NCBI GenBank assembly: GCA_016192705.1
Contig: JACPTQ010000043.1
Location: 65,437 to 129,436, forward strand
Source of the DNA: Deltaproteobacteria bacterium
GTDB taxonomy: Bacteria > Myxococcota > JACPTQ01
Direction of reading: 5' to 3'
DNA length: 64,000 nucleotides
Under the pieces are notes generated by a model. That model was not told where the DNA came from, searched no databases, and saw only the letters and a list, made by a program, of their open reading frames with translations. This document shows positions 4,138 through 55,879 of this stretch, one piece after another. Both the position numbers and the translations under genes were made by a program. The first letter of the stretch is position 1; each line of letters starts with the position of its first letter.

Positions 4138-4959
4138 ATGCTTGATATTCTGCAGGCCCGCTGGCGCCAAGGATTTCGCACCGTTCTGCTTCCGGTCACG
4201 CAAGATGCTTTTCCCGATCGCTTTCGCGGGCGGCCCATCATTGACTCCACGAAGTGCGTCGACGGTTGCCGCGCGTGCGTTGACGCATGCCCGACCGGTG
4301 CCATCACCATCACCGCTCCCGCACCCGCTACTGCTCCCGCAACCGCCACCGCACCCGTCTCCACCTCCGCACCCGCGAACCGAGTCACCCTCGACCTCGG
4401 CAAATGCATCTTCTGCCCCGCGTGCGTCGAAGCCTGCCCCACGGGCGCCATCACCTACACGCGCGACCATCGCCTCGCCGCGCGCACCCGCGACGACTTA
4501 CGCATCACCAACGCCGAAGCGCCAAAAATCGCGGCGCTCGATGCCGCGATGCGAAAACTCCTCGGCCGCGCCCTTCGCCTTCGCCAAGTCTCAGCCGGCG
4601 GCTGCAACGGCTGCGAGGCCGAGCTCGTCGCACTCGGCAACGTCGTCTTCGACATGAGCCGCTTCGGGATTCAATTCGTCGCTTCGCCTCGCCACGCGGA
4701 CGGCATCGTCATCACCGGCCCCGTCACACACAACATGCGTCAAGCCCTCATCGAAACCTACGAAGCGACGCCGGCGCCACGCATCGTCATTGCCGTCGGC
4801 GCCTGCGCCATCTCGCAAGGCGCCTTCGCATCCGAGAGCGGTCCCGTTTCCGGTATCCCACCCGAAATCCCCGTCGATCTCTTTATCCCCGGCTGCCCGC
4901 CGCATCCGCTCACCGTTCTCGACGGTCTTCTTCGAATGCTCGGCCGCAACGAATCGTAA
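4138..4959 (+). CDS. Fusion of a 2x[4Fe-4S] ferredoxin (HycF/NuoI-like) with a NuoB/HycG-like small subunit
   Basis: N-terminal motifs CVDGCRACVDACP and CIFCPACVEACP. The C-terminal part has GGCNGCEAEL, AVGACAISQG and IPGCPPHP, the four Cys of the NuoB-type cluster. Confidence 0.85.
   Translation: MLDILQARWRQGFRTVLLPVTQDAFPDRFRGRPIIDSTKCVDGCRACVDACPTGAITITAPAPATAPATATAPVSTSAPANRVTLDLGKCIFCPACVEACPTGAITYTRDHRLAARTRDDLRITNAEAPKIAALDAAMRKLLGRALRLRQVSAGGCNGCEAELVALGNVVFDMSRFGIQFVASPRHADGIVITGPVTHNMRQALIETYEATPAPRIVIAVGACAISQGAFASESGPVSGIPPEIPVDLFIPGCPPHPLTVLDGLLRMLGRNES
4315..4377. repeat. CCCGCW-type hexamer tract (C-rich on the top strand)
   Basis: gctcccgcacccgctactgctcccgcaaccgccaccgcaccc... 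It encodes APAPATAPATATAP between the two ferredoxin cluster motifs. Confidence 0.8.
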
Positions 4960-7470: not shown

Positions 7471-7610
7471 AAAGACGTGGTAATCTACACGACCTTCGCG
7501 GCGAAAGCGAGAACAATCTCGCCCGCACACGCTTTTTGTGGTATGGGGTTCGGTTTGCCGTCGCGCGAAGATGGCGCTCGACGACACGTGGTCCGACGGG
7601 AGGGGGCAAT

Positions 7611-10600
7611 ATGTCGACGCACTGCGAGTTCTGCGGAGCCGAAGCGCAGGTAACGAAAAGCCACTGCGAGAATTGCCATACGATTCTCAATGAGGTCGCG
7701 CATCGAGAGCTTTGGCGGCTCAACATCCTCATCGACGAAGTCGAGGCGTGGCGCGAGCGGGGCGACCTTCTCCCGGCCGAGATCTTTCGCTTGGAACGCC
7801 AGTATCGCTCGAGTCGCGAGAGGCTGCTGGCGTCCCGAACACCCGCCTCCGCTTCCGCACCCGCTACCGCTACCGCACCCGCTACCGCTCCCGCCTCCGC
7901 ACCCGCAAAAGATTTTAACGCCAAGGCGCAAAGGAGCGAAGACGCAAAGAATGAGACCTCTTCCCGTGGCGACTCCGCGCCTTTGCGTCAAATTCCCGCT
8001 CCGGAATTCGCAGTCACTTCCGCAGAGACCGAACGAACCGGTCCATCGGCCATATCCTGGGCGATCTTGATCGCTCTTGCTGTTTTCGTCATCGCCGTGT
8101 TCGACGGCGATTTCATCTCCTTCGTCTTTGCTGGTTCGATCCTCAGCATCAATATCGTGCGTTCGTTCTTACGACGACAGTCGGTACAGCCACCCGCACC
8201 CGCTCCCGCAGAAGATTTCAACGCCAAGGCGCAAAGGAGCGAAGACGCAAGAAATGAGACCTCTTCCCGTGGCGACTTCGCGCCTTTGCGTCAAATTCCC
8301 GCACCCGCTCCAGCATCCGCAACCGCCGACGAAACCGCACCCGCGCAAAACCCAAAACGCGCGGAGCATCGCATCGAATGGCTCGCCAACGTCGGGATCG
8401 CCGCGGTCCTTACAGCGGTCGTCTTATTGGCTGAGGCGCATTGGGCCTCGGTCGCGGAAGTCGCCCGCGCCGCGATCGTGGGCGGCGGGGCGCTCGCGCT
8501 GTTTCTCGTCGGTGCGCTCCTTCGGTCTCGCACAGCCCTGAAAACAACCGGTTGGGCGCTCGTTGTCGTCGGCGCACTCGGCGTCCCAATCGCGGTCGCA
8601 CTGGCGGCCATTGCATCAGGCGCTCGGGCGCAAAGCGCGGTGGTCGCGACGGGCGGCGCTCTCACGACGATCTTCTACGCCCTTTCGGCTCGCTGGTTTA
8701 CATCGAAACTCTTTGGACTCCTCACACCGCTCACGGTTCTTACGGCGTACGGATTCCTTCTCAACGCGGCGTCGGCGCCACCCGAAGCGTACCCAAGTGG
8801 TTTTGGAATCGCGGGCCTCGCCTTCGCGGTTTTCGCATGGCAGCGCCCTCAGAATCGAGCCGCGACCTTACTTGCGCGCCTCATTGTCCTTGGGTCGGCC
8901 ACTCTCCCAGCGGTTCTCGCAGTACGCGGCGATCTCCCATGGGCGTGGGGCGCCATCGGCTTTTTGGCCGTGGCCGGCGGGTTCGCCGTCCTCTCGATCC
9001 CATCGGCGAAATGGGCCGTGGGCGCTCCCTTGGCGCTTCTCGGCGCACTTTACTGCGCGTTCGTTACGTTTGGGGTTGCGGGTGTTGTGCGAGACAGCGG
9101 GTTTGCGATCCTCGGTGGGGCCTTTGTTGTCGCGGGTTTGCGCGATGGCATTCGAGCGCGCGCGCGCTGTCTCGGCGGCGTCCTGGCGCTCCAAATCGGC
9201 ATCGCAATGGCAATCACCGAAGCCGCACCCGCAGCGCTCATCGGGGTGATCGCGAGCATTGCCATTGCGTCGCTCACGGCTGCGGTCGCGACCGTTCGTC
9301 GCAAAAGCGAGCTGTGGGCTCTCGCGGCTTTGGTGGGTGCGGGATGCGCGCTGGGCCTTACCGCATGGCAACTTGGCGCCAACCTCGAACTCCTCGCGCT
9401 CGTGCTCGGCGGCTTTGCGAGCGCAATGCTGGTCACATCGCACCTCAGCGTTTTCCTTCGCCGCGTCTCCATCGCGACCGGAGTCGGCTTTCAGATCGTG
9501 GCCGGCCTCGCCGTCTTTTGGAACGGCCAGCCCCCAACGGGATGGGAAGGAATCGCCGCGCTTGTGTTGTCCGTCGCCGCAGGCGCGTTCGCTCTCGTGC
9601 GCCGGGACTCGCGATGGCTGTATTTCGTCGCGGCCGGTGCCGTCGTGTCGCTCATCGCCACGCTCGGCGCGACCCGCGTTCCGTTTGAAGCGTGGCCCAT
9701 CGCGATTGAGGCTCTTCTCGCCGTCCCGTTCGCGCTGCAGCTCAAGAAAATTTCGCGTGAGGCAAATTCCCTCGCCGGATTGGCGGCGGCCCTCGGTCTC
9801 GTCTTTGGCCTTACGCACCTCGAAACTCCCATCGTTGGCGTCACCACGCTTGGCTTCTCTGGAATCCTCTGGACGATCCTCGGCGCCCGGCTTGGACCGG
9901 CATCGTCTGGGCGCATGCGCGACATCTGCGCCCTCATGGTCGGCGCTGGCGCTGGCGCCATCTGCATCAGCGTCTCGTGGGTGCTCGCTCTACCGGCCAT
10001 CGCCCTCACCCCCGCGTGGATTGCGCCAGCATCCGCCGTGCTGCCCGCACTCCTCGTTGTTCTCGCGAGCCGCGTTCGAGCGCGTTTCCTTGACCTCCCC
10101 TGGGCGGTGATTGGAGCGGTCGGCCTCATCTTCGCCTTGCAGCAGTCGTTTCCAGGCGGCGCACAAGCCATCGGCATGGTCGCGATCCTTATCGCCGCTG
10201 CATCCGGCCTTGCGTCGCCCGTTGCGCCCAACTTCCTTCGCGGCGTCGCGGCGCTCGCCTTCAACACCGCAGAGTTCGCATTTCTCGTTCACTTCGACGT
10301 CGCACCGATGATCTCCGCGTCTATCTTGATGCTCACGGCATTCGCGGAAGCCCTCGGAGCGACCCTCGCGGGCGAACGCAAACACGGAACTGGAATCCTT
10401 CTGTCCGCTCTCGTTCTCGCGATCTCGGCGATTGTGCAATCTTTTATTCCGCGCGTTGGTCCCGAAGGCTCACTCGCGCCTGCGCTCATTGCGATTGGCC
10501 TTTTCGCCGTCGGTGGCTGGATCGTCGCGGGACTCAGACGACAGACCTACCTTCTCGCGCTCGCGCTCTGCGCGACACTCAGTTTCTTCTTCATCGCCCT

Positions 10601-11168
10601 GCGCGCGGCGTCGATCGACATCGTTGAAGCTTATATCTTCCCACCCGTCGCGGCTTTCCTCGTTTGGGCGGCCTTCGCCACACGACGCGTCTTCGCGATC
10701 CACATCGACGCGCTCGGCGAAGTCCGGTTTGAGGAACGTCTGTCGCGATACGCAAGCGGAATCGCCCGTGGCGTCGCGGTGCGGCTCCCGTTCTTCCGCG
10801 TCCTGGCGATTCTCATCGCGCTCGTCCCGTCCACCTTGTTGGGGCTCTCGGAGAGTGACACGCTGCACACCATCCTCGCGGTGTCTGCGGGCGCGAGCGT
10901 CCTCGTTTACGGCGTCCTCATCCGCAAGAAAATCGACGCGCTGCTCGGCACCGTCGGGCTTCTGTTTGTTGTTCTATGGAAAGCGATCGCGTGGCTCGCC
11001 TACTGGGAAGTGCTCCGAAACGCCGCGGCCGCGTGGTGGTTCCTTGTGGTGGGCGTCGTTCTCCTTACGACAACGGCCGCCATCGAACTGCATCGTCGTG
11101 GCCGGTTGAGGGGGTACGGGAAAAGCGTGCGCGAGACCCTCGACCGGCATTTCACGTCCTGGGGATAA
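7611..11168 (+). CDS. Large polytopic membrane protein with an N-terminal zinc ribbon (possibly DUF2339-like; family unverified)
   Basis: ATG 7611 is preceded by GGGAGGGGG. N-terminus is CEFCG...CENCH. About 25 or more hydrophobic segments follow. It contains two in-frame copies of an 89-bp repeat. Confidence 0.7.
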   Translation: MSTHCEFCGAEAQVTKSHCENCHTILNEVAHRELWRLNILIDEVEAWRERGDLLPAEIFRLERQYRSSRERLLASRTPASASAPATATAPATAPASAPAKDFNAKAQRSEDAKNETSSRGDSAPLRQIPAPEFAVTSAETERTGPSAISWAILIALAVFVIAVFDGDFISFVFAGSILSINIVRSFLRRQSVQPPAPAPAEDFNAKAQRSEDARNETSSRGDFAPLRQIPAPAPASATADETAPAQNPKRAEHRIEWLANVGIAAVLTAVVLLAEAHWASVAEVARAAIVGGGALALFLVGALLRSRTALKTTGWALVVVGALGVPIAVALAAIASGARAQSAVVATGGALTTIFYALSARWFTSKLFGLLTPLTVLTAYGFLLNAASAPPEAYPSGFGIAGLAFAVFAWQRPQNRAATLLARLIVLGSATLPAVLAVRGDLPWAWGAIGFLAVAGGFAVLSIPSAKWAVGAPLALLGALYCAFVTFGVAGVVRDSGFAILGGAFVVAGLRDGIRARARCLGGVLALQIGIAMAITEAAPAALIGVIASIAIASLTAAVATVRRKSELWALAALVGAGCALGLTAWQLGANLELLALVLGGFASAMLVTSHLSVFLRRVSIATGVGFQIVAGLAVFWNGQPPTGWEGIAALVLSVAAGAFALVRRDSRWLYFVAAGAVVSLIATLGATRVPFEAWPIAIEALLAVPFALQLKKISREANSLAGLAAALGLVFGLTHLETPIVGVTTLGFSGILWTILGARLGPASSGRMRDICALMVGAGAGAICISVSWVLALPAIALTPAWIAPASAVLPALLVVLASRVRARFLDLPWAVIGAVGLIFALQQSFPGGAQAIGMVAILIAAASGLASPVAPNFLRGVAALAFNTAEFAFLVHFDVAPMISASILMLTAFAEALGATLAGERKHGTGILLSALVLAISAIVQSFIPRVGPEGSLAPALIAIGLFAVGGWIVAGLRRQTYLLALALCATLSFFFIALRAASIDIVEAYIFPPVAAFLVWAAFATRRVFAIHIDALGEVRFEERLSRYASGIARGVAVRLPFFRVLAILIALVPSTLLGLSESDTLHTILAVSAGASVLVYGVLIRKKIDALLGTVGLLFVVLWKAIAWLAYWEVLRNAAAAWWFLVVGVVLLTTTAAIELHRRGRLRGYGKSVRETLDRHFTSWG
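7841..7906. repeat. CCCGCW-type hexamer tract
   Basis: acccgcctccgcttccgcacccgctaccgctaccgcacccgctaccgctcccgcctccgcacccgc. It encodes PASASAPATATAPATAPASAPA. Confidence 0.8.
7911..7999 (+). repeat. 89-bp palindromic repeat unit R1, in frame inside the CDS
   Basis: Differs from 8214-8302 at 4 of 89 positions. The arm gacgcaaag (7941-7949) pairs with ctttgcgtc (7981-7989). Confidence 0.9.
8214..8302 (+). repeat. 89-bp palindromic repeat unit R2, in frame inside the CDS
   Basis: Second copy, exactly 303 bp (101 codons) downstream of R1. It is flanked on both sides by CCCGCW tracts (8191-8210 and 8298-8346). Confidence 0.9.
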
Positions 11169-12863: not shown

Positions 12864-14927
12864 TCACGGCGTCGCGCAACAGCGAAAACCGATTTCGCCC
12901 GACCGCTCGCCGGCCGGCTTACGAAGCCGCGACGCGCAACGCACGCCGTAGTCCGGCCGGAGGCTCGACCCACCGCGCACCGCGCCCAGCTTCGCGCCCT
13001 GCGCCGACGTCGCCGCTGTCCACTCGGCCACGTTGCCGCTCATGTCGACCGCGCCGCTCGGCGACCGACATCCCCGATATTCCCCCACGGGTGCGACGTT
13101 TCGAGGCGCCCCCGTGGCGTCGGCCGAGTTGCACGTGTCGGCGTCGAACTCGTCGCCGTATGGGTACCGGATTTTCCGGCCCCCGTTGCACGCGCGCTCC
13201 CACTCGTCTTCGGAGCAAAGCCGCTTCAGAGCGCGTTCGCAGATGCCCTGAGCCTCGCCAAACGAAACGCGCGTCGCCGGCATTGCGCCGCGATACCCGG
13301 GGTACTCGAAAACGTCGACGCAAAAATCGTCCACTTTAACCCACTCGAACGCCCGATCCCCAAATGCGCGAAGCGGATCGCTCGCCGCACTGCCAACCGG
13401 CGTCTTTCCGCCCTTAACCAGCGCCATCCCCTTCGCGCACTTTCCCTTCTTGGGTGGCACGACCTTCGATGGAACGTCGCGGTCGGGTGCCGCTCCCGCA
13501 CCCGCTCCCGCACCCGCGCGCGCACCCGCATCCGCTACCGCTCCCGCTCCCGCATCCGCTACCGCCACCACCACCGCTACCGCTCCCGCATCTGCTACCG
13601 CACCCGCGCCCTTCCCCGCATCCGCGGCTGGATCGCGGATCGGCTGTGCGCGCAACCGAGCAATCTCGCCATCAATCTGATCGATCGCGACAAGCGACCC
13701 AGCGGTGCCAACGACAAACGCAGCCGCGAGCAGCGCCCAACGAAGCACAAACCCAGCGGGCCAATCGCGCGACGGTTTTTGCCAGACAGCCTCGCCCACA
13801 GGCGGCGTCGGCGTCCTGGCGGACGACTTTCCGCGCGGATGTGGTGGCCGTTCAGGAACCTTGGCATCCGGGATTGTTCCCGGTGGAAGCGGTGGCGATT
13901 GAGGCGCCGCTTTCTCGACCGGTTTCGTCGCCCTTGGCGCATCGCTTCGACTTGGCAGCGGGGGCGGCACCGGAGGCCGGGCCGGTTTTTCTGCAGCCTT
14001 CGCGCGATCGCCGCTTTCAGGAAATTCGAGCGACGGCTGACGCGCCGTGCTGGCATCGGCTTCGACGTGCTCGCCCGGGCCCGCCACAACGATTTTAGCC
14101 GGTGCACCGCCTGGTCGCCGCGCGCCCTCCCGCGTTGGCGTCGGCGCAATGGTCTCGCGAAACGCCTCGATCAACTCCGCGGGCGAAACAAAACGGTCCG
14201 CTGGATTTGCCGCAACCGCGCGCGACACGAACTCCGTAACACTCGCCGGCTTTCCCGCGGCTCCAACGCGCTCGGCCGCGCCCCCCCGCGCACACGCTTC
14301 GTCCCACTTCCCGACCAACAATTCAAAGGCGATGGCGCCGAGCGAGAACAGGTCGGATCGCGTATCTCCGCGCCCCTCGCGCACTTCCGGCGCGTGGAAC
14401 GGGCCCAGCGACGTCGCGAACCGGTTGCCATCCAAGGCCTCGCGCAAATAGAGGTCCGTAATTTTTATCGCGTCGGGCAAAATGAGAATGTTCGCCGGCC
14501 TCAAGTCTCCATGAAAAGTCGTGCGGTGAACCACCTCAAGCGCCGAAACGAGCTGCGATAGGAGCGCGTCCGCCTCATCCAGCGAAAATCGATCGCCCTT
14601 TTCGGCGCGCATCGCAAACGCGCGGTCGAGCGACACCCCCTCGATGAACTGAGCCGCGACGAAAACCGCGTCGCCATCCTCACCGACATCAAAGACGCGA
14701 TTCAAATTTCTATGCGAAATCTTTCGCGCGAGACGCAGCGTATCAACCGCCCGACGCCGCTCGCCAGGTCCCGGAAAAACGCCGACATCGAACAGCTTGA
14801 GCGCCACCGTCACTTCAATCTCGGCGTCTTGGGCCGCGTACACGGCACCGAAGGGACCGCGCCCAACGAGCGACCGAATTTCGTACCGGCCCGCGATCCG
14901 ATCGCCCTCTTTAAAATCCTTCGTCAC
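12864..14927 (-). CDS. Ser/Thr protein kinase fused through a TM segment to an FGE-sulfatase (SUMF1-like) domain
   Basis: Kinase motifs GRGPFGAVY, HGDLRPANIL and APE. C-terminal motifs RVSFGEAQGIC, DMSGNVAEWT and VRGGS are typical of formylglycine-generating-enzyme-family domains. The GTG start lies 3 nt after the dut stop. Confidence 0.9.
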   Translation of the reverse strand: MTKDFKEGDRIAGRYEIRSLVGRGPFGAVYAAQDAEIEVTVALKLFDVGVFPGPGERRRAVDTLRLARKISHRNLNRVFDVGEDGDAVFVAAQFIEGVSLDRAFAMRAEKGDRFSLDEADALLSQLVSALEVVHRTTFHGDLRPANILILPDAIKITDLYLREALDGNRFATSLGPFHAPEVREGRGDTRSDLFSLGAIAFELLVGKWDEACARGGAAERVGAAGKPASVTEFVSRAVAANPADRFVSPAELIEAFRETIAPTPTREGARRPGGAPAKIVVAGPGEHVEADASTARQPSLEFPESGDRAKAAEKPARPPVPPPLPSRSDAPRATKPVEKAAPQSPPLPPGTIPDAKVPERPPHPRGKSSARTPTPPVGEAVWQKPSRDWPAGFVLRWALLAAAFVVGTAGSLVAIDQIDGEIARLRAQPIRDPAADAGKGAGAVADAGAVAVVVAVADAGAGAVADAGARAGAGAGAGAAPDRDVPSKVVPPKKGKCAKGMALVKGGKTPVGSAASDPLRAFGDRAFEWVKVDDFCVDVFEYPGYRGAMPATRVSFGEAQGICERALKRLCSEDEWERACNGGRKIRYPYGDEFDADTCNSADATGAPRNVAPVGEYRGCRSPSGAVDMSGNVAEWTAATSAQGAKLGAVRGGSSLRPDYGVRCASRLRKPAGERSGEIGFRCCATP
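13489..13627. repeat. Longest CCCGCW-type hexamer tract (about 140 bp)
   Basis: C-rich on the top strand although the gene is on the minus strand. It is translated as AGAVADAGAVAVVVAVADAGAGAVADAGARAGAGAGAGA. Confidence 0.8.
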
Positions 14928-15571: not shown

Positions 15572-15934
15572 ATGAACAAGGAGCGAGTGAAGTTTTTCCG
15601 CCAACTCCTTAGCGAGCGCTTGGTGCGCGCGAGCGACGCCAACAACGTTCAGGAGGCCGTTGAGACGCCCCTCGAAGCTCTCCCAGACCAAAATGATCAA
15701 GCGTCGGTCGACTACGATCGCACCCTCGGCATCCGCATCCTCGACCGCGAACGACGCCTCATTCACAAGATTAAGCAGGCGCTCGAACGGCTCGAAACAG
15801 GCTCGTACGGCCTTTGCGAAGAGTGCGGCGAAGAGATCCCTGAAAAGCGACTCGTGGCGCGCCCCGTCACGACGGTGTGCGTCGATTGCAAAAACGAAGG
15901 TGAAAAACGCGAGCGCTCGTTCCTTCAGGAGTGA
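15572..15934 (+). CDS. dksA: DksA/TraR-family C4 zinc-finger transcription factor
   Basis: 120 aa. A coiled-coil N-terminal part is followed by CEECGEEIPEKRL...CVDC. RBS GGAGG is upstream. Confidence 0.9.
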   Translation: MNKERVKFFRQLLSERLVRASDANNVQEAVETPLEALPDQNDQASVDYDRTLGIRILDRERRLIHKIKQALERLETGSYGLCEECGEEIPEKRLVARPVTTVCVDCKNEGEKRERSFLQE

Positions 15935-16008
15935 TCGAAGAAGAGAGTTCCGACGCGCATCGGCTCGAAGAACGTGAGCTATCCATCCTTCGCGTTCTTA
16001 ACTTCATC

Positions 16009-16449
16009 TCACTGCAATTCCTCCTTTGTCGGCTCTTCCTCACCATACGAAAGTTTTTTGACCTCTTCGATCTCACGCGCTGGAACCTCCTCGCGATGCC
16101 ATGCGAGGTAATGGATGCAAAGAGAGTTTGTTTCCATGCTTGAATCTGGCAACACGTGATTCGTGTTGTCGCTCATGGCCCCGCAAACACACTCGTGCCA
16201 ACCCATAAACATAATGTCTTCAATCTTGCCGTTCACAAGAGAGCCTTCGATGGTTTTACGATACGCGGCAGTCATCTTTCTTGTGATCTCATCCAGCGTC
16301 GGCTGCGCGGACTTCTGTTGCGTCGGCTCAATGAACAACAATTCGCGACTTTCCACTTTCATCCTTACGCCGCTTCCGGCCGTGGTCACAGTTTGAATTG
16401 ATCGGCGCTCCTTTTCCAGTTTCTCCTCGATCCCTGGATAAGCAGCCAA
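16009..16449 (-). CDS. Hypothetical protein in a low-GC islet; no recognisable family
   Basis: 146-aa ORF (TTG start; alternative ATG at 16362). Composition is clearly AT-richer than its surroundings. His/Cys cluster WHECVCG...CIHYLAWH. The conserved element 16423-16841 abuts and overlaps its start. Confidence 0.5.
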   Translation of the reverse strand: MAAYPGIEEKLEKERRSIQTVTTAGSGVRMKVESRELLFIEPTQQKSAQPTLDEITRKMTAAYRKTIEGSLVNGKIEDIMFMGWHECVCGAMSDNTNHVLPDSSMETNSLCIHYLAWHREEVPAREIEEVKKLSYGEEEPTKEELQ

Positions 16450-16841
16450 TTCTCTATCCGCGCGTAGGGTCGGCAGGTGCCGCTTCGGCGCGCCGACGTC
16501 CTCGGGTCTGAACTAACGCGCACGACAGCGCCGCCGCTCAGATGCAAGCGAAAGTCGCTGACCCCATCTGGTATCGACCAGCGTTCGATCGACCCCCAAG
16601 TCTCTCAACCGCCGTTCCGGGAAAACGGCCGGTTTCTGGTTCGGCGGGCGGGGAGTGGGCAAGCGAAGGCTCGCGTCCGCAGGGGATGAGGTGCCGATGG
16701 GGCGCGGGATTGCCGTTCTCATGAAGTTTGATTCATTCTGTGCATACTCACATTTCATGTCAGACCCGAGGACTTTCGCGAGCCGGCGCGCGCCCAAACC
16801 CCGCCCGCACACGAAAACTTTGGCCGTTATCAAGGAATCAG
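16423..16841. repeat. Conserved structured non-coding element, copy A
   Basis: Alignable by hand to 24439-25148 at roughly 85% identity. Contains the hairpin gtcggc...gccgac with a cttc loop, and the 14-nt inverted repeat gtcctcgggtctga (16498-16511) / tcagacccgaggac (16760-16773). Confidence 0.85.
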
Positions 16842-16891
16842 AGAGTTTCTGCATTTGACGCCGCCCGCGCGCCGCATGATGTATACGCCCC

Positions 16892-19800
16892 GTGGCAATC
16901 CTGTTCGATGAAATCACGGGCGGCGGACCCGCAGTTGTCCACGCGGGACTCCCCCCGGGCGCACTCGCACGCGCCATCGCGGAAGCGGCACAATCAGAGG
17001 CATGGGCCGGACGCACCATCGTCGTTGTTACGCCAACGGGCGATGACGCCGAATCGATGGTCGACGACATCCGCTTCTGGGCGGGCGCCCAAGATTCCGA
17101 TTTACCACTCGACTTGCTTGCGGAACGCGCGATCCTTTTTGCCAGCCGCCCCGAATCGCCGTACGCCGACGTCGCGCCGTCACGGTCCCCGGTCGAGCGC
17201 GGTCTCGCGATCGCTTTCGCGCTGACGCAGGGGTTCCCGCTCGCACCCATCGTCATCCCCGTCGACGCCTGGTGCCGCCGAATGCTCGGTCGCGACGCGC
17301 TCGTTGCTTTGAGCGACATCGTGATGGTCGGCGAAAAAATCGACCGCGAGAAATTCGTCGCGCGGCTCATCGAAGGCGGCTACGCGCGGGTACCCCTCGT
17401 CGAAGACCCCGGCACGTTTGCGGTCCGAGGCCACGTCATCGACGTCTTCGTCCCGTTCTATCGTTACCCGCTGCGCATCGAAGTCGACTTCGATCGCGTG
17501 GAAGCGATTCGCCTCTTTCGGGCGGACGCGCAGCGCACGGTCGCGCCCCTCGAGGAAGCGCTCATCCACCCCGTCCGAAACGAGTGCTATCGCGCCGGCG
17601 CCAAAGTCGATATCGCGGCGCGCCTTCGCGAACTTGCGGCGCATCGCGACGTGTCGTCCCGGGCTTTGAGATCGGCGCTCGAGGCGATCGAGCGTGAAGT
17701 CCATTTTTTTGGATGCGAGGCGGTCTTTCCGGCATTTGAGCCGTCCGCCGCGACACCATCATCATTTCTGCCGCCTGATGCCATCCTCATTTTCGCCGAC
17801 GCCGCCGAAATTACGCGGCGCGCGGAAGAGCAAACGCGCGACGAGGCTCGGCGCCATCAGCGAAGTCTCGACGCCGGGGCGCTCTCGTATCCGCCCGAGT
17901 CGTACTTTGCTCCCGTCGATTGGAGCACCGGCATTCGCGTCGAGCGCCTTCCCATCGATGGCGCAACCGATCACGCGATAACACCGAACGGCGCCGAAGT
18001 TCGTGTGCGGGACCACTCGCTCACCCATGTTGCCGAGGCGATCGACGACGCTCGACGCGACGGATTCGACGTTAAGATCGTCGCGCGCCGTGACAACGGA
18101 CTCGATCGCTTGCGCGCGCTTTTGCCAAACCACGAGCTGGTCTCGTTCGAACGCGGGCCCGCGGTGCATGGGTTTCGCGACGTGGCAACGAAGACGTGGG
18201 TTCTCACCGAATTCGAGATTCTCGGAAAACGTCCGCGACACGGCGGCCCAACAACGGCCAGCCCGTCCCGCGCCGCGATCGAGTTTCGCGATCTCGCGCC
18301 CGGCGCCTTAGTTCTCCACGCCGACCATGGCGTTGCGCGCTACCATGGACTCCGCACGCTTACAGTTGCCGGCACGACGAGCGAATTCCTTCACCTCGAA
18401 TTCGCGGCCAACGACAAGCTCTACCTGCCCGTCCTCCGTCTCGACCGCCTTCAAAAACATCCGGGCGGTGACGCCGAACCGCGCCTCGACAAACTCGGCG
18501 GCGAGCGATTTGCCGAAACCAAAAAGCGCGTTCGTCGCGATCTCCTCGCCATGGCCAAAGAGCTCGTTGCGACGCATGCCGCGCGCACCGTGAAACCCGG
18601 CTTCGCGTTCTCGGCGCCCGACCCGCTCTTTCGCGAATTTGAGGGGCGCTTCCCGTACACCGAAACGCCCGACCAAGCGCGCGCCATCGACGAAACACTC
18701 GCCGACATGCAGCGCGCGGAGCCGATGGACCGCCTCGTTTGCGGCGACGTCGGCTTCGGTAAGACCGAGGTCGCCATGCGCGCCGCCATGAAAGCGGTGC
18801 TCGACGGCCGCCAGGTCGCCGTCCTCGTTCCGACCACCGTTCTCGCGATCCAGCACGAACAGACGTTTCGCGAGCGATTCGCGACGTACCCCGTCCGCCT
18901 CGCATCGCTCTCGCGCCTGCAGTCGGCCGCGGAGAGTGCGGCGATTCTCGCCGACGTCGCAAACGGAAAGATCGACATCGTCATCGGCACGCACCGCCTC
19001 CTTTCAAACGACGTCGCCTTCCGCGCGCTCGGCCTTGTCGTCGTCGACGAAGAGCACCGCTTCGGCGTCGCGCACAAAGAGAAGCTCAAGAAGCTCCGCG
19101 CCGAAACCGATTTCTTGACGCTCACCGCAACGCCGATTCCGCGCACACTCCAGATGTCGCTGACCGGCCTTCGCGATCTCTCGATCATCACGACCGCGCC
19201 CGAGGACCGCCTCGCCGTACGCACGGTCGTCTCACGCTTCGACCCGGCCACCGTCAGCGAAACAATTCGCGCCGAGATTCAGCGCGGTGGCCAAGTCTTC
19301 TTCGTCCACAATCGCGTTCAGGGCCTCAAGCAGCTCGCGGACTACATCCAAACGCTCGTCCCTGAAGCGAAAATCACCGTCGCGCACGGACAACTTCCCG
19401 AGCGCGCGCTCGAAGAGGCGATGCTCACGTTCACGCGCGGCGGCACCAACATCCTTGTCTCAACGACAATCATCGAAAGCGGGCTCGACATCCCGCGCGC
19501 AAATCTCATGTTCATCAACCGCGCCGACACGTTCGGGCTCGCCCAGCTTCACCAGTTGCGAGGCCGCGTTGGCCGGTCGCGCGAGCGCGCCTACTGCACC
19601 CTCATCGTTCCCGGACGCGTCCTCACGCGCGAAGCCGAGGAGCGCCTCCGCGTCCTGCAAGACTTCAGCGACCTCGGCTCTGGGTATGCCATCGCCACGC
19701 ACGACCTCGAAATCCGAGGCGCCGGAAATCTCCTCGGTGCCGAGCAACATGGAGCCATCACGCAAATCGGGTTCGAGCTTTACGCCGAAATGCTCGCGGA

Positions 19801-24383: not shown

Positions 24384-24438
24384 TCAGCGAGCTTGCACAG
24401 GATCAATTGTGGCAAGCGACATGGGACAATGCAAACGC

Positions 24439-24465
24439 GTCCTCGATCCCCGGTTAAGCGGCCAG
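24439..24465 (-). pseudogene. Remnant of the first nine codons of the 16009-16449 ORF family, with a stop at codon 4
   Basis: Minus strand reads CTG GCC GCT TAA CCG GGG ATC GAG GAC. Copy A reads TTG GCT GCT TAT CCA GGG ATC GAG GAG. Homology is lost after codon 9. Confidence 0.5.
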
Positions 24466-25148
24466 TCATCTACTGCGCGTAGCGTCGGCAGGTGCCGCCT
24501 CGGCGCGCCGACGTCCTCGGGTCTGACTTGTTTCGCAGGTCACCTGTTCTCACTGAAGAAAGCTATGTCTACCAATCGCGCAACCTGCCGCCACCTCACA
24601 CCCTGCGCAAAGGTGCGCTGCGGGCTGCGCGGCACTGCCGCGACACCAAGTTTGGTCGAGCACAACCGGCATTTGCAACTCCGAGCACACAAAGGTCTCG
24701 GGTGTTCCGTCGCCCTCGCGATTCTGTTCGCGCCGGCAAGCCACAGGCTTGCCAACGATTGCTCACAGAATAGGCGCGCCTATGCGGCACCCCTGACCCT
24801 ACGCAATTCCGGGCAGACCGCTTTCCAGGGACGTATTCTTTAGGCTTGAGGGCAGTACGAAGGGTTCACCCGGTGGGTGTCGGTCAGCGTTCGATCTACC
24901 CCCAAGTCTTTGAACCGCCGTTCCAGGGAAACGGCTCGTTTCTGGTTGGGCGGGCGGGCGTTGGGCTTGCTCCAGGTCGCGTCCGCAGGGGATGAGGTGC
25001 CGATGGGGCGTGGAATTGCCGTTCTCGTGATGTTTGATTCATTTCGTGCAGATTCACATTTCATGTCAGACCCGAAGACTTCCGCGACCCGGAGCAAGCC
25101 CAACCCCCGCCCGCCTCACGCAAATTTTGCCCGTTATCCGGGAATCAG
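24439..25148. repeat. Conserved structured non-coding element, copy B, with an internal expansion of about 360 nt
   Basis: Same orientation as copy A. Inverted-repeat arms are at 24513-24526 and 25066-25079. The roughly 66 nt of variable sequence in copy A is replaced by 24527-24885, which is rich in nested hairpins. Confidence 0.85.
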
Positions 25149-25233
25149 GCAAACGTGTGAATTGAATCCCGAGGTGCGTTGTGGCACATTCACGGCGAAA
25201 GTCGCGCGCGCGTAACGAAAGAGGGTCACCAAG

Positions 25234-26094: not shown

Positions 26095-27792
26095 TTGTTC
26101 GTGGTGGTGACGTGGACGCATCGCGCGATCGTTCTCGTCGTTCTTCTTACATCAAACGTTTCGGCCGATACGCCCACCAATCACGTTTACGTTGAGGCGC
26201 CAAGGCCCGGCGAGGCTCGAAAATACACGCGCGCACGAATCGACGACCTGCCCAACGTGGGCCCCACTGGCCCGCTCGCCGGACGGCGACCCATCCGCTC
26301 TCGAATGGCGCCCGGCACCTTCATCTATGGTGCGCCGCCCACGCCGCTCGCGCCCGATTCGCAACCAGCGCCCGACGCGCGCAGAACGGTTTCTGGTCCG
26401 ACGGCGTCACGACCGGAAAATGGCGCTCCTCCGCGCGCACCGGAGCGCGACTCGGCCTTCATCCCCGATCTCGATACCGGCCCAGAGCCGATAACCTCGT
26501 ACGTCGAAGTTTTTTCGCCAGCGACGGGACGTAAACGCTTTGCGGCGTTTGACCGCGTGAACGCCGATGGATCGCTCGAGATTGCCGACACGACACCGAA
26601 CGCAGCGCCCCGCGTCGCAGCATCAGAGCATGGGGCTCCGGCCGCGGGACGTACGCGCTTCACCGGCGACGTTCGCATTCGCTTGAGCGCAACGGAGTTT
26701 GTTCCGATTCCATCTGTTGCGGCCGGGGCACGCCTCGTGAGCGCCACGTCGCAACCGCCCGCGGAGCTCACTTTCGCGATCGACAGCGCCGAGAACTGGT
26801 CAGTCCGCGCAAACCAGAGCGGCCTCGCGCGTCTCGTCTATCGGCTCGACGCGCCGGATTCATACTTCGGGCCGACGATCGCAAAAGAGATCGATTGGTC
26901 CGAGATCCCAGCGACGCTTCGTCCCGTTCTCCCAGCGGACCTCGCGGCCGACGCCACGCTCGTCCTCGCGGCGACCAAGATTTCGCGCGAACAGCCTTTC
27001 GAATATGTCGTCAAGGCGCTCGCAACTTATTTTCGAAGTTTCTCCGCTGGCCAACTTTCAGAGCGGGCGTCGGACTCGCCCTACCGGCGAATTGCGCTCG
27101 GTCGCGTCGGAATCTGCCGGCACCGCGCGTATGCGTTTCTCATAACGGCGCACGCGCTCGGAATCCCGACGCGCGTCGTCACGAACGAGGCGCACGTCTT
27201 CGTCGAGGTGTTCGCACCCAAGTTGGGCTGGGTTGGCATCGACTTGGGTGGCGGCGCCCAAGCGATCAACGAGTATGGAATCGCGGGACGGCCCCTCTAC
27301 GAGCCGCCCGAATCTTCGTCGTTTGAGTGGCCATCATCGGGCGCATCAACGGACAGCGGGACGGCTCAAACGGTCGGCGACGAGGCGCCCGCGACAATGT
27401 ACTCCGCGCTTCCCGCGGGTCCTCGCCCGGCACCCGCAACCGCTCGCGAACCCGCCTCTACTCCCGCACCCGCGCCCGCAACTGCACCCGCAGCCGAACG
27501 CCCCTTCGTAGGAATCCCCGCGCGCATCGACTTCACGTGGGATGACGTTCCCCGCACCGCGCACCCCGGCACGGCCATTCACGTTGGCGGCCGCGTCGCA
27601 ACTGAAACCGACGAGCCCGTTCCACGCGCCTTCGTCGCGCTCACCGCATCACGCCCGAGCGACTCCGCGCCCCTCTTCACGCTCGGCCCGTTTTTCTCGG
27701 ACCCCAACGGCCACGTGCGCGCCATCGCAGTCATCCCGCTTGACGCTCCGCCGGTCGCCGTCGAGTTTAGCGTCCGCGTCACGCTCCCATGA
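26095..27792 (+). CDS. Secreted transglutaminase-like domain protein
   Basis: Signal peptide. The core GICRHRAYAFLITAHALGIPTRVVTNEAHVFVEV...GWVGIDLGG carries a Cys-His-Asp transglutaminase-like arrangement. Confidence 0.75.
   Translation: MFVVVTWTHRAIVLVVLLTSNVSADTPTNHVYVEAPRPGEARKYTRARIDDLPNVGPTGPLAGRRPIRSRMAPGTFIYGAPPTPLAPDSQPAPDARRTVSGPTASRPENGAPPRAPERDSAFIPDLDTGPEPITSYVEVFSPATGRKRFAAFDRVNADGSLEIADTTPNAAPRVAASEHGAPAAGRTRFTGDVRIRLSATEFVPIPSVAAGARLVSATSQPPAELTFAIDSAENWSVRANQSGLARLVYRLDAPDSYFGPTIAKEIDWSEIPATLRPVLPADLAADATLVLAATKISREQPFEYVVKALATYFRSFSAGQLSERASDSPYRRIALGRVGICRHRAYAFLITAHALGIPTRVVTNEAHVFVEVFAPKLGWVGIDLGGGAQAINEYGIAGRPLYEPPESSSFEWPSSGASTDSGTAQTVGDEAPATMYSALPAGPRPAPATAREPASTPAPAPATAPAAERPFVGIPARIDFTWDDVPRTAHPGTAIHVGGRVATETDEPVPRAFVALTASRPSDSAPLFTLGPFFSDPNGHVRAIAVIPLDAPPVAVEFSVRVTLP
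27431..27493. repeat. CCCGCW-type hexamer tract
   Basis: cacccgcaaccgctcgcgaacccgcctctactcccgcacccgcgcccgcaactgcacccgc. It encodes PAPATAREPASTPAPAPATAPA. Confidence 0.75.
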
Positions 27793-53962: not shown

Positions 53963-55879
53963 ATGTCAACAACCTGTCCGCGCTGCGGAGCCGATTTCAA
54001 GGAGACCGCGTCGTTCTGCGGTTTCTGCGGCGCGCCCGCGCTCCGCGAGTCCCGCAAGGAGCCGGCCGACGCGCTTCTCGGTCGGATCATCGACGGCCGC
54101 TACCGTGTCGTCACGCGCATCGGCGAGGGCGGCATGGGCACCGTTTACAAAGTTGAGCACGTCCACATCGGAAAATTCATGGCGCTCAAAATCTTGCGGC
54201 GCGAATTCAGCGCAAGCGCCGACGTCGTTCGCCGATTTCGCCGCGAGGCGCAAGCCGCCAGCCGATTGTCCAACGTCCACACCGTCGCGGTCTTTGACTT
54301 TGGCCGAAGCGCGGAGGGCGCGCTCTACATTGCGATGGAATGGGTCGAGGGCGAAAACTTGCTGACGCTGCTCTCGAAGGAAGGCCCGTTCCCTTGGCGA
54401 CGCGTCGCCAAAATCGGCCTCCAACTCGCCATCTCGCTCTCCGAAGCACACGAAAAGGGGATCGTCCACCGCGACCTCAAGCCCGAGAACATCATGGTCG
54501 TGCGAACAAAAGAGGGCGGCGAATTCGTCAAGATCCTCGACTTCGGGCTTGCGAAAGTCGTCGAGCTCGACAGCCAAGGCGAAGTCATCACCGCCCACGG
54601 CAACATCGTTGGCACCCCGTACTACATGGCGCCCGAGCAGATCAAAGGCGACGACGTCGATCCGCGCGCCGACATCTACTCGCTCGGCGCCGTGCTCTAC
54701 CGGCTCCTCTGCGGCGATCCGCCCTTCTACGCAAAGTCGCCGATCGCCGTGCTCCAAAAACATTTGAACGAACCACTTCCGCCGCTTCGCGACCGCATGT
54801 CCGGACGCGAGCTTCCCGATGCCCTTGAGGCGCTCGTCCACCAGGCCCTCGAAAAAGATCGCGACCGCCGCCCAGGCAACGCCGAAGAACTCCGACGCCG
54901 GTTCGACACGCTGCTCGCGAACAGCGGCCACGAGAGCCCGTCGGGAAGTAAGAGCCCCGTTGTTGCACTCGACGAATGGAGATGGGACACCGAGCTTCGA
55001 ATCAGCGAGCGACAAGACTGGGAGCGCTTCGCACGCGGGCTCAAGCGACGTCGCTTTCTTTCGATCGTCATTCCGCTCGTTCTGCTTGGCGGAATTGCGG
55101 CAACGCTCTATTTTTTTGCGACAGAGCAAGGCTGGTTTGCTCGCTCGCGTGAAGGCGAGCCGAACAACGACCCGAACCAGGCGACGCGCCTCGTGCCCGG
55201 GCGCCCGTTGAAAGGGCAAATCGGGAAACGGACGTCACCCGCAGTCGGCGATCAGGATTTCTATCGCGTCGAATTTCCGAAAGGGGCGGCACCTCAAAAC
55301 ATTCGAGTCGAAGTCACGCCGATTCCCCGCATGAACATCGAGATCAAGCTCTTCAGCGCAAGCGGTGGCGCGGCCATGGCGTTGGCCGACGAAACAGGCC
55401 CCGGCGGCCGCGAAATCATGTGCCGCCACCAACTTCCGCCCGAGGGCGCGCTCATCCTCGTTCGCGAGCGCCCTCTTCCCGACTCGGCACCCACAGAAAA
55501 TGTGAGCGACGATTACACCATTACCGCGACACTGTCGGCGATTTCGCCCGGTGAGGAAGTTGAGCCGAACAACTCAGCTCAGACCGCCAACGCCCTCGCT
55601 CCGACGACATGGATTACTGGAACGATTTGCGGAGGCTCGGACGAAGACTGGTACCGCGTCGATGCGACACCCCTCGTCGGCAAAACGGTGCGGCTCGAGT
55701 TTGAACCCAAGGCCGGCGCCGAAAAAGCGACGGTTGGGTTTTACTCAGAGGAACTCGCGTTCCTCGGCGAGAAGCGCGAACTCAAGATGGAACGCGCGGG
55801 CGTCTATTACGTTGTTGTCCGCGGCAGCAAAGGAACCGCCTTCGAAGCGGAGTATCGCCTGCGCGCGATACTGAAATAA
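53963..55879 (+). CDS. Zinc-ribbon Ser/Thr protein kinase with a TM segment and two C-terminal pre-peptidase (PPC)-like domains
   Basis: CPRCG...CGFCG; kinase motifs GEGGMGTVYK, HRDLKPENI, DFGLAK and APE; the pattern EPNN...DxDxYR occurs twice. Confidence 0.85.
   Translation: MSTTCPRCGADFKETASFCGFCGAPALRESRKEPADALLGRIIDGRYRVVTRIGEGGMGTVYKVEHVHIGKFMALKILRREFSASADVVRRFRREAQAASRLSNVHTVAVFDFGRSAEGALYIAMEWVEGENLLTLLSKEGPFPWRRVAKIGLQLAISLSEAHEKGIVHRDLKPENIMVVRTKEGGEFVKILDFGLAKVVELDSQGEVITAHGNIVGTPYYMAPEQIKGDDVDPRADIYSLGAVLYRLLCGDPPFYAKSPIAVLQKHLNEPLPPLRDRMSGRELPDALEALVHQALEKDRDRRPGNAEELRRRFDTLLANSGHESPSGSKSPVVALDEWRWDTELRISERQDWERFARGLKRRRFLSIVIPLVLLGGIAATLYFFATEQGWFARSREGEPNNDPNQATRLVPGRPLKGQIGKRTSPAVGDQDFYRVEFPKGAAPQNIRVEVTPIPRMNIEIKLFSASGGAAMALADETGPGGREIMCRHQLPPEGALILVRERPLPDSAPTENVSDDYTITATLSAISPGEEVEPNNSAQTANALAPTTWITGTICGGSDEDWYRVDATPLVGKTVRLEFEPKAGAEKATVGFYSEELAFLGEKRELKMERAGVYYVVVRGSKGTAFEAEYRLRAILK

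Follow-up and report, generated by a model that had tools for sequence, protein, structure and literature searches.

The defining features of bacterial MITEs have been set out by Delihas (2011, PMC3184786), and folding into a long stem-loop is a classic one among them. A described family, Chunjie of Geobacter uraniireducens, measures 178–235 bp and has 21-bp terminal inverted repeats (TIRs), 9-bp direct repeats and very stable predicted hairpins (Delihas 2011, PMC3184786). By these numbers Chunjie is the closest described MITE to the element reported here, although it is A+T-rich and smaller.

Target duplications and terminal structures differ among insertion sequences. Duplications of 8–9 bp are made by the IS1, IS256, IS66, ISL3, IS1595 and ISAs1 families. 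IS200/IS605 PATEs and omega-RNA remnants have subterminal hairpins without TIRs or a target duplication, and are recognized by a match to the HEARO/omega-RNA model. Members of the IS4 family make direct repeats of 7–13 bp and have 5'-CT or 5'-CA termini (De Palmenaer et al. 2008, PMC2266710), with repeat lengths that vary by subgroup: 9 bp for IS10, 8–9 bp for IS50, 7–8 bp for ISPepr1 and 8–10 bp for IS4Sa (PMC2266710).

Here we describe a pair of repeats, copies A and B, in a 64-kb stretch of bacterial DNA (the window, which is the whole stretch analysed). We interpret the pair as a MITE-like, gene-less mobile element that was inserted at two intergenic sites, and put the probability of this reading at about 0.8, because the element is non-coding, has TIRs, is bounded by a flanking duplication at each of the two sites, is missing from the corresponding site in relatives, folds back on itself and is probably present in multiple copies.

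Two gene-less copies and their ends

Copy A occupies positions 16425–16843 (+ strand, 419 bp) and copy B positions 24441–25148 (+ strand, ~708 bp), with termini placed to within 1–2 nt. An earlier, sequence-only reading of this DNA had reported that the block 16423–16841 recurs in equal orientation at 24439–25148, and blastn confirms this as two collinear segments, one pairing 16424–16511 with 24440–24526 (88.6% over 88 nt) and the other 16570–16841 with 24876–25148 (84.2% over 273 nt). The alignable total is ~361 nt at ~85% identity, in agreement with the hand estimate of ~85% over ~350 nt. The sequence between the two homologous blocks is unrelated between the copies, measuring 58 nt in A and 349 nt in B. 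Homology has its edges at 16425/24441 on the left and at 16841–16843/25148 on the right, and the sequences that flank copy A are unrelated to those that flank copy B. The copies are 8 kb apart in equal orientation, each in a divergent intergenic region; that of copy B lies between the PAP2 and Zn-ribbon genes.

As in bacterial MITEs, neither copy (419 bp and ~708 bp) contains a transposase or a conserved frame; copy B is above the usual limit of ~400 bp. Open frames exist in both copies on both strands, as is usual at 63% GC. The differences between A and B are mostly non-synonymous and a 1-nt indel breaks the frame, which bears out the earlier statement that there is no coding-type substitution pattern, and a search of a protein database with the six-frame translation of copy A gave no match. 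The homology had also been said to reach the start codon of the adjacent ORF. This is refuted: the TTG at 16449 is a mechanical ORF start only, and homologues of the protein beside copy A align from the ATG at 16362. For this small gene the gene caller gives a 146-aa version (P0050), in which a TTG within the MITE serves as the start.

Both copies end in imperfect TIRs of ~20 nt, in which CCTCGATCCCYGGWTAAGC is paired with the reverse complement of the right end. The left end is CCTCGATCCCTGGATAAGCAGCC in A and CCTCGATCCCCGGTTAAGCGGCC in B; the right end, read as its reverse complement, is CTCTGATTCCTTGATAACGGCC and CCTGATTCCCGGATAACGGGC, respectively. In both copies, a left-end profile matches the right end in reverse complement, and blastn agrees. 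The left TIR pattern was found only at the left ends of the two copies, with 0.05 matches expected by chance. Immediately outside lie short direct repeats, which are candidate target-site duplications:

16418–16424, unstranded: left flanking direct repeat of copy A, AGTTTCT, a candidate target-site duplication at the homology edge
16844–16850, unstranded: right flanking direct repeat of copy A, AGTTTCT, a 7-mer identical to the left one
24431–24440, unstranded: left flanking direct repeat of copy B, GCAAACGCGT, 9/10 identical to the right one
25149–25158, unstranded: right flanking direct repeat of copy B, GCAAACGTGT, at the homology edge

Among 20,000 random placements with equal search freedom, 0.6% score as well as the real positions (permutation P ~0.006 for each copy), and the two copies are independent tests. 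Putative target-site duplications are therefore seen in both copies, with unequal lengths: 7 bp and perfect in A, versus 9–10 bp with one mismatch in B.

These ends bear on the possibility that a promoter or intergenic segment was copied by segmental duplication or gene conversion, without a mobility mechanism of its own. We consider this extremely unlikely: it is consistent with only two copies being seen, 8 kb apart in equal orientation and both in divergent intergenic regions, but it is opposed by the unrelated flanks, the ~15% divergence of the copies, the different flanking duplication that each copy has, the contig breaks that imply other copies and the position of the conserved promoter-like motif of mfd outside the repeat (see below). 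The recent segmental duplication of promoter DNA, which the sequence-only reading had named as a finding that would count against it, is thus not borne out.

Repeated units and predicted folds

Seven copies of a single ~90–100-nt unit build copies A and B (alignment A4), with E-values of 1e-22 to 9e-9 over the seven places when a profile of the unit is searched with nhmmer. Copy A contains three units, in the layout U1(+), spacer, U2(+), loop, U3(−), and copy B contains four, in the layout U1(+), interior, Ux(−), U2(+), loop, U3(−):

16425–16514, + strand: U1 of copy A, with the left TIR CCTCGATCCCTGGATAAGC, the GC hairpin 16470–16498 and GTCCTCGGGTCTGA (nhmmer E = 1.7e-20)
16591–16693, + strand: U2 of copy A, a degenerate internal unit that contains the left arm of the long stem (16615–16675; nhmmer E = 3.5e-13)
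16671–16704 and 24977–25010, unstranded: 34-nt block identical in A and B (…TCGCGTCCGCAGGGGATGAGGTGCCGATGGGG…), within the loop of the long stem
16751–16843, − strand: U3 of copy A, with the right TIR, reverse complement CTCTGATTCCTTGATAACGGCC (nhmmer E = 1.5e-21)
24441–24534, + strand: U1 of copy B, a unit profile match
24767–24844, − strand: Ux, an extra inverted unit found only within the 349-nt interior of copy B (nhmmer E = 9e-9)
24897–24999, + strand: U2 of copy B, a unit profile match
25057–25148, − strand: U3 of copy B, a unit profile match

The profile search (nhmmer) of the 64-kb window found no solitary units or element copies beyond these seven places. The U1 region of copy A has an inverted match to 16757–16845 (E = 4e-4). 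A profile of the left module, made from 16423–16515 and its counterpart in copy B, matches the reverse complement at 16757–16840 (E = 4e-4) and 25063–25147 (E = 1.7e-3), and also matches an inverted stretch in the spacer of copy B (24771–24831, E = 2.9e-3). Within that spacer, Ux gives inverted blastn matches to 24477–24509 and 16462–16494. The junction upstream of U2 is common to both copies. Copy B looks like two foldback units in tandem, with an interior like a second inverted end (Ux), and copy A like a possible deletion derivative. We rejected independent insertion of the inner units, which have no flanking repeats of their own on direct reading of the sequence.

Units in both orientations come with extensive potential for pairing. 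Copy A contains a 61-nt inverted repeat (16615–16675 / 16777–16837, 69% complementary), and copy B an inner stem of 33 nt (24949–24981 / 25083–25115, 94% complementary). The features that the sequence-only reading had pointed out are real. The 14-nt long-range inverted repeat (16498–16511 / 16760–16773) has 248 nt between its arms and is nested in a 31-nt inverted repeat of 81%; the GC hairpin at 16470–16498 is predicted as described, with a loop of CTTC in one copy and CCTC in the other; the ccgtt/aacgg stem at ~16612–16628 has different loops in A and B; and the motif cgcgt...aggtgccg is present twice, reflecting the internally repeated ~90-nt unit. Read at the level of units, the 14-nt 'long-range helix' is the inner end common to U1 and U3, and the direct motif pair is U1 versus U2. 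Repeated units standing in opposite orientation would then account for the long stems, for the 14-nt pairing and for the repeated motifs, none of which would be evidence of a selected RNA fold.

A rival interpretation makes the copies structured non-coding RNA genes or cis-regulatory leaders, in which the long stem (16615–16675 / 16777–16837) and the 14-nt helix would be under selection and the invariant 34-nt loop block would be the functional core. Both strands fold into structures that are more stable than those of shuffled sequences (z = −2.3 for the + strand and −3.2 for the − strand), 3–4 base pairs of the long stem differ in both partners between A and B yet remain paired, and two mismatches of copy B are C–A on the + strand but G–U on the − strand. 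The 34-nt block is invariant between the copies, and the two copies have equal orientation, each with a + strand gene downstream. However, the arms of a foldback can stay complementary without selection, two sequences cannot separate covariation from arm-to-arm homogenization, and the repeated units from which the stems are built are found in direct orientation as well. RNA genes do not have TIRs or flanking duplications, and copy A is absent from the orthologous region upstream of mfd in three relatives. There is no conserved promoter or terminator, one weak promoter-like site being present on the − strand of copy A only. Structured RNA is also disfavoured by the lack of a match to any Rfam family: with Rfam 15, the whole 64-kb window had 0 hits at gathering thresholds, tRNA and rRNA included, and both copies returned only noise at E-values up to 10. 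We therefore regard this interpretation as quite unlikely.

The Rfam result also agrees with the earlier observation that hallmarks of RNase P, tmRNA, SRP and group II introns are missing, and we rejected a retron, a group II intron, tmRNA and RNase P for want of an Rfam hit. The sequence-only reading had left a choice between an undescribed structured RNA or leader and a non-autonomous mobile element. The second half of this choice is supported, by the TIRs, the flanking repeats and the absence of copy A from three relatives; the first half is not, given that there is no Rfam match and no conserved promoter–terminator pair and that the element is not kept upstream of mfd in relatives. An alternative offered at the time, the degenerate flanks of an old insertion sequence, comes close to the mobile-element reading that is supported here.

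There is a slim chance that the two halves combine, in that the mobile element also carries a selected nucleic-acid module consisting of the 34-nt block (16671–16704) in a ~100-nt loop of a ~60-bp stem. Such a module might be a transposon-borne regulatory or guide-like RNA, possibly on the − strand, or a structured DNA site for an unusual transposition enzyme.

The mosaic of units also brings to mind REP/BIME- or REPIN-like sequences, which would have been spread not by a DDE transposase but by a RAYT (Y1) transposase or through recombination. The GC-rich units in alternating orientation with variable linkers, the intergenic location and the extra unit by which copy B differs in a modular way from copy A are all in keeping with this, but the units are ~90–100 nt in length and not 20–40 nt, none stands alone elsewhere in the 64 kb, and the ORFs of the window that were scanned include no RAYT-like gene and no Y1-transposase domain. 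Furthermore, both copies have flanking repeats and TIR-like ends, neither of which is generated by REP or REPIN insertions, as is well established (cf. Delihas 2011, PMC3184786). We give such a mosaic only a slender likelihood. Because TIRs and target duplications are present, we set aside REP/BIME/REPIN sequences and, likewise, a remnant of an IS200/IS605 PATE or omega-RNA, for which there was also no Rfam hit. The architecture of repeated units agrees with the long stem-loop folding that is classic for MITEs (Delihas 2011, PMC3184786).

The insertion site at mfd and evidence for further copies

To examine the site of copy A in other genomes, we reached relatives through DksA (15572–15934), which is 92% identical in the related loci L038–L041, 88% in L042 and L043 and 66% in L044. 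Throughout L038–L044, dksA is followed by mfd on the equal strand after 12–65 nt, and the spacer is without the element. Position 15932 of the window aligns to position 2979 of L038 and position 16855 to position 2992. Window positions 15935–16853 are without a counterpart in the relatives; this stretch comprises a small low-GC gene (16009–16362, − strand) and copy A. Deletion of 16425–16850 (copy A and one repeat) gives TTCCAGTTTCTGCATTTGACGCC, which aligns across the junction with TTCCTGCTTTTCCATTGACGCC of L042/L043 at 17 of 23 positions, a short alignment. This is suggestive of the DNA just left of copy A being ancestral spacer, in which case the element and the small gene would be separate insertions. 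An empty site, as is characteristic of bacterial MITEs, is therefore seen for copy A, although the relatives also lack the adjacent small ORF and the comparison is not one of a clean single event. More distant contigs that bear DksA (12 loci, 129 kb) have another genomic context and no unit matches.

The small gene, which with its flanks covers 15935–16417, encodes 117 aa and has a GC content of ~49% compared with 63% for the window. Its product carries the motif H-x-C-x-C ... C-x-H and had no match in Pfam, NCBIfam or the PDB. It belongs to a large, uncharacterized family (730 cluster representatives at E ≤ 1e-3) whose members are stand-alone or fused to other domains. The gene is absent from the dksA–mfd spacer of relatives and seems to have been inserted independently of the MITE.

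Downstream of copy A, the window and L038–L043 have in common a motif with the GTG start of mfd at its end, TTGACGCC-N12-CATGATG(A/T)ATACGCCCCGTG, which was not seen in L044:

window 16854–16894, L038 2992–3031 and L042 1352–1392: mfd promoter-like motif

The motif begins directly after the right flanking repeat of copy A, which lies 3–4 bp upstream of the conserved −35-like TTGACG. From its sequence, the motif may be a promoter so near the start codon that mfd is leaderless, and copy A may affect the expression of mfd. Copy A thus marks what appears to be a recent insertion directly upstream of the mfd promoter-like motif.

Although the copies actually seen are two, both within the 64 kb, assembly breaks point to others. 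Logan contigs that are 100% identical to the window, from four metagenomes (SRR12113385, SRR12113390, SRR12113422 and SRR12113426), break inside the copies. At copy A they end at 16486 (three samples) or start at 16766, at copy B they end at 24469/24473 or start at 25097, and one contig spans exactly from copy A to copy B. We take Logan to have been assembled with de Bruijn graphs of k = 31. In a graph of this kind, a contig that enters a repeat ends ~29 nt past the onset of the shared sequence. The 34-nt block is the only k-mer run of at least 31 nt common to copies A and B, and A and B alone therefore do not explain the breaks. Taken with the presumed k, the breaks suggest that additional copies exist in these samples. 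The break at 24469 would place the start of the sequence shared with some other copy at 24440/24441, which is the boundary deduced from the flanking repeat.

Searches for the element elsewhere returned nothing related. An exact 18-mer of the invariant block matched 22 loci in the GTDB species genomes, and an exact 20-mer matched 10 loci in JGI metagenomes, all of them chance matches with no extended homology. Viral contigs searched with three patterns gave nothing, nor did plasmid and phage collections searched by blastn. As no sequence relative was found in the GTDB, JGI, viral and plasmid/phage sets, the family seems to be confined to a poorly sampled lineage. Neither the GTDB species set nor the JGI metagenome set contains the contig from which the window comes; it was found only as short Logan contigs from the four SRR samples. 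The element defines a repeat family that breaks short-read assemblies of an uncultivated lineage, with contigs from four samples stopping inside it.

The window has repeats of other kinds. A 12-nt periodic, CCCGC-rich repeat occurs in several unrelated ORFs (4284–4376, 7820–7911, 8297–8344, 13473–13631 and 27429–27509), where it encodes low-complexity linkers of Ala/Pro/Thr in + strand genes and of Ala/Gly/Val/Asp in a − strand kinase. A 113-nt direct repeat (7890–8002 / 8193–8305, 303 nt apart and 92% identical) lies inside a 1,210-aa ORF at 7536–11168 that has no Pfam match, and encodes the duplicated segment …EDFNAKAQRSEDA.NETSSRGD.APLRQIPAP…; a Logan contig (L023) starts at 8282, inside this repeat. 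The window also encodes a Ser/Thr protein kinase fused to a C-terminal FGE-sulfatase domain (12864–14927, − strand) and a second Ser/Thr kinase (53963–55879).

Proposed transposition and comparison with known systems

No transposase or autonomous partner was found within the 64-kb window, the genes of which belong to the core chromosome (nuo genes, a dcw cluster with ftsZ and ftsA, a pilQ-type secretin, kinases and mfd). We propose that a DDE-type transposase encoded elsewhere in the genome would bind both ends of the element. The target would be cut with a stagger of ~7–10 bp, the element would insert, and repair of the stagger would leave the flanking direct repeats. Since it is the whole element that the duplications flank, the composite from U1 to U3 would have moved in one piece. 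After insertion, copies A and B would have diverged by ~15% and come to differ by an internal deletion or insertion (58 versus 349 nt). If this is correct, the repeat derives from a transposon, and the appearance of a large, undescribed structured RNA was a false lead that is now removed.

The length of the flanking duplications fits subgroups of the IS4 family. The element differs from these insertion sequences in that it contains no transposase and in that its left end starts with CCTCGAT. The right end reads CTCTGAT... or CCTGAT... as the reverse complement, and comparison of both termini with those of IS4 is ambiguous by 1–2 nt. The reverse complement of the right end, C(T)CTGATTCC, is reminiscent of the outside end of IS10, CTGATGAATCCCC; we regard this as a lead and not as a test.

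Like REPINs and BIMEs, the element is an intergenic, hairpin-forming mosaic of GC-rich units in alternating orientation; unlike them, it is built of units three times as long and carries flanking duplications and TIR-like ends, and the window contains neither solitary units nor a RAYT gene. It also resembles BOX of Streptococcus pneumoniae (boxA-boxB(n)-boxC) in being modular and non-autonomous, with conserved end modules and a variable interior. The sequence and the host of BOX are unrelated, however, and its modules are direct whereas the units of the element occur in both orientations.

Compared with bacterial MITEs, the element is larger (419 and ~708 bp), GC-rich rather than A+T-rich and made of three to four units of ~90–100 nt (composite or foldback), and the likeness is one of description, not of sequence. 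The features that it shares with them are the lack of a transposase gene, TIRs of ~20 nt, flanking repeats of 7–10 bp, an intergenic location, a long stem-loop fold and presence or absence between relatives. The element would introduce no new principle and instead add one more MITE family, with an unusual composite architecture of three or four units.
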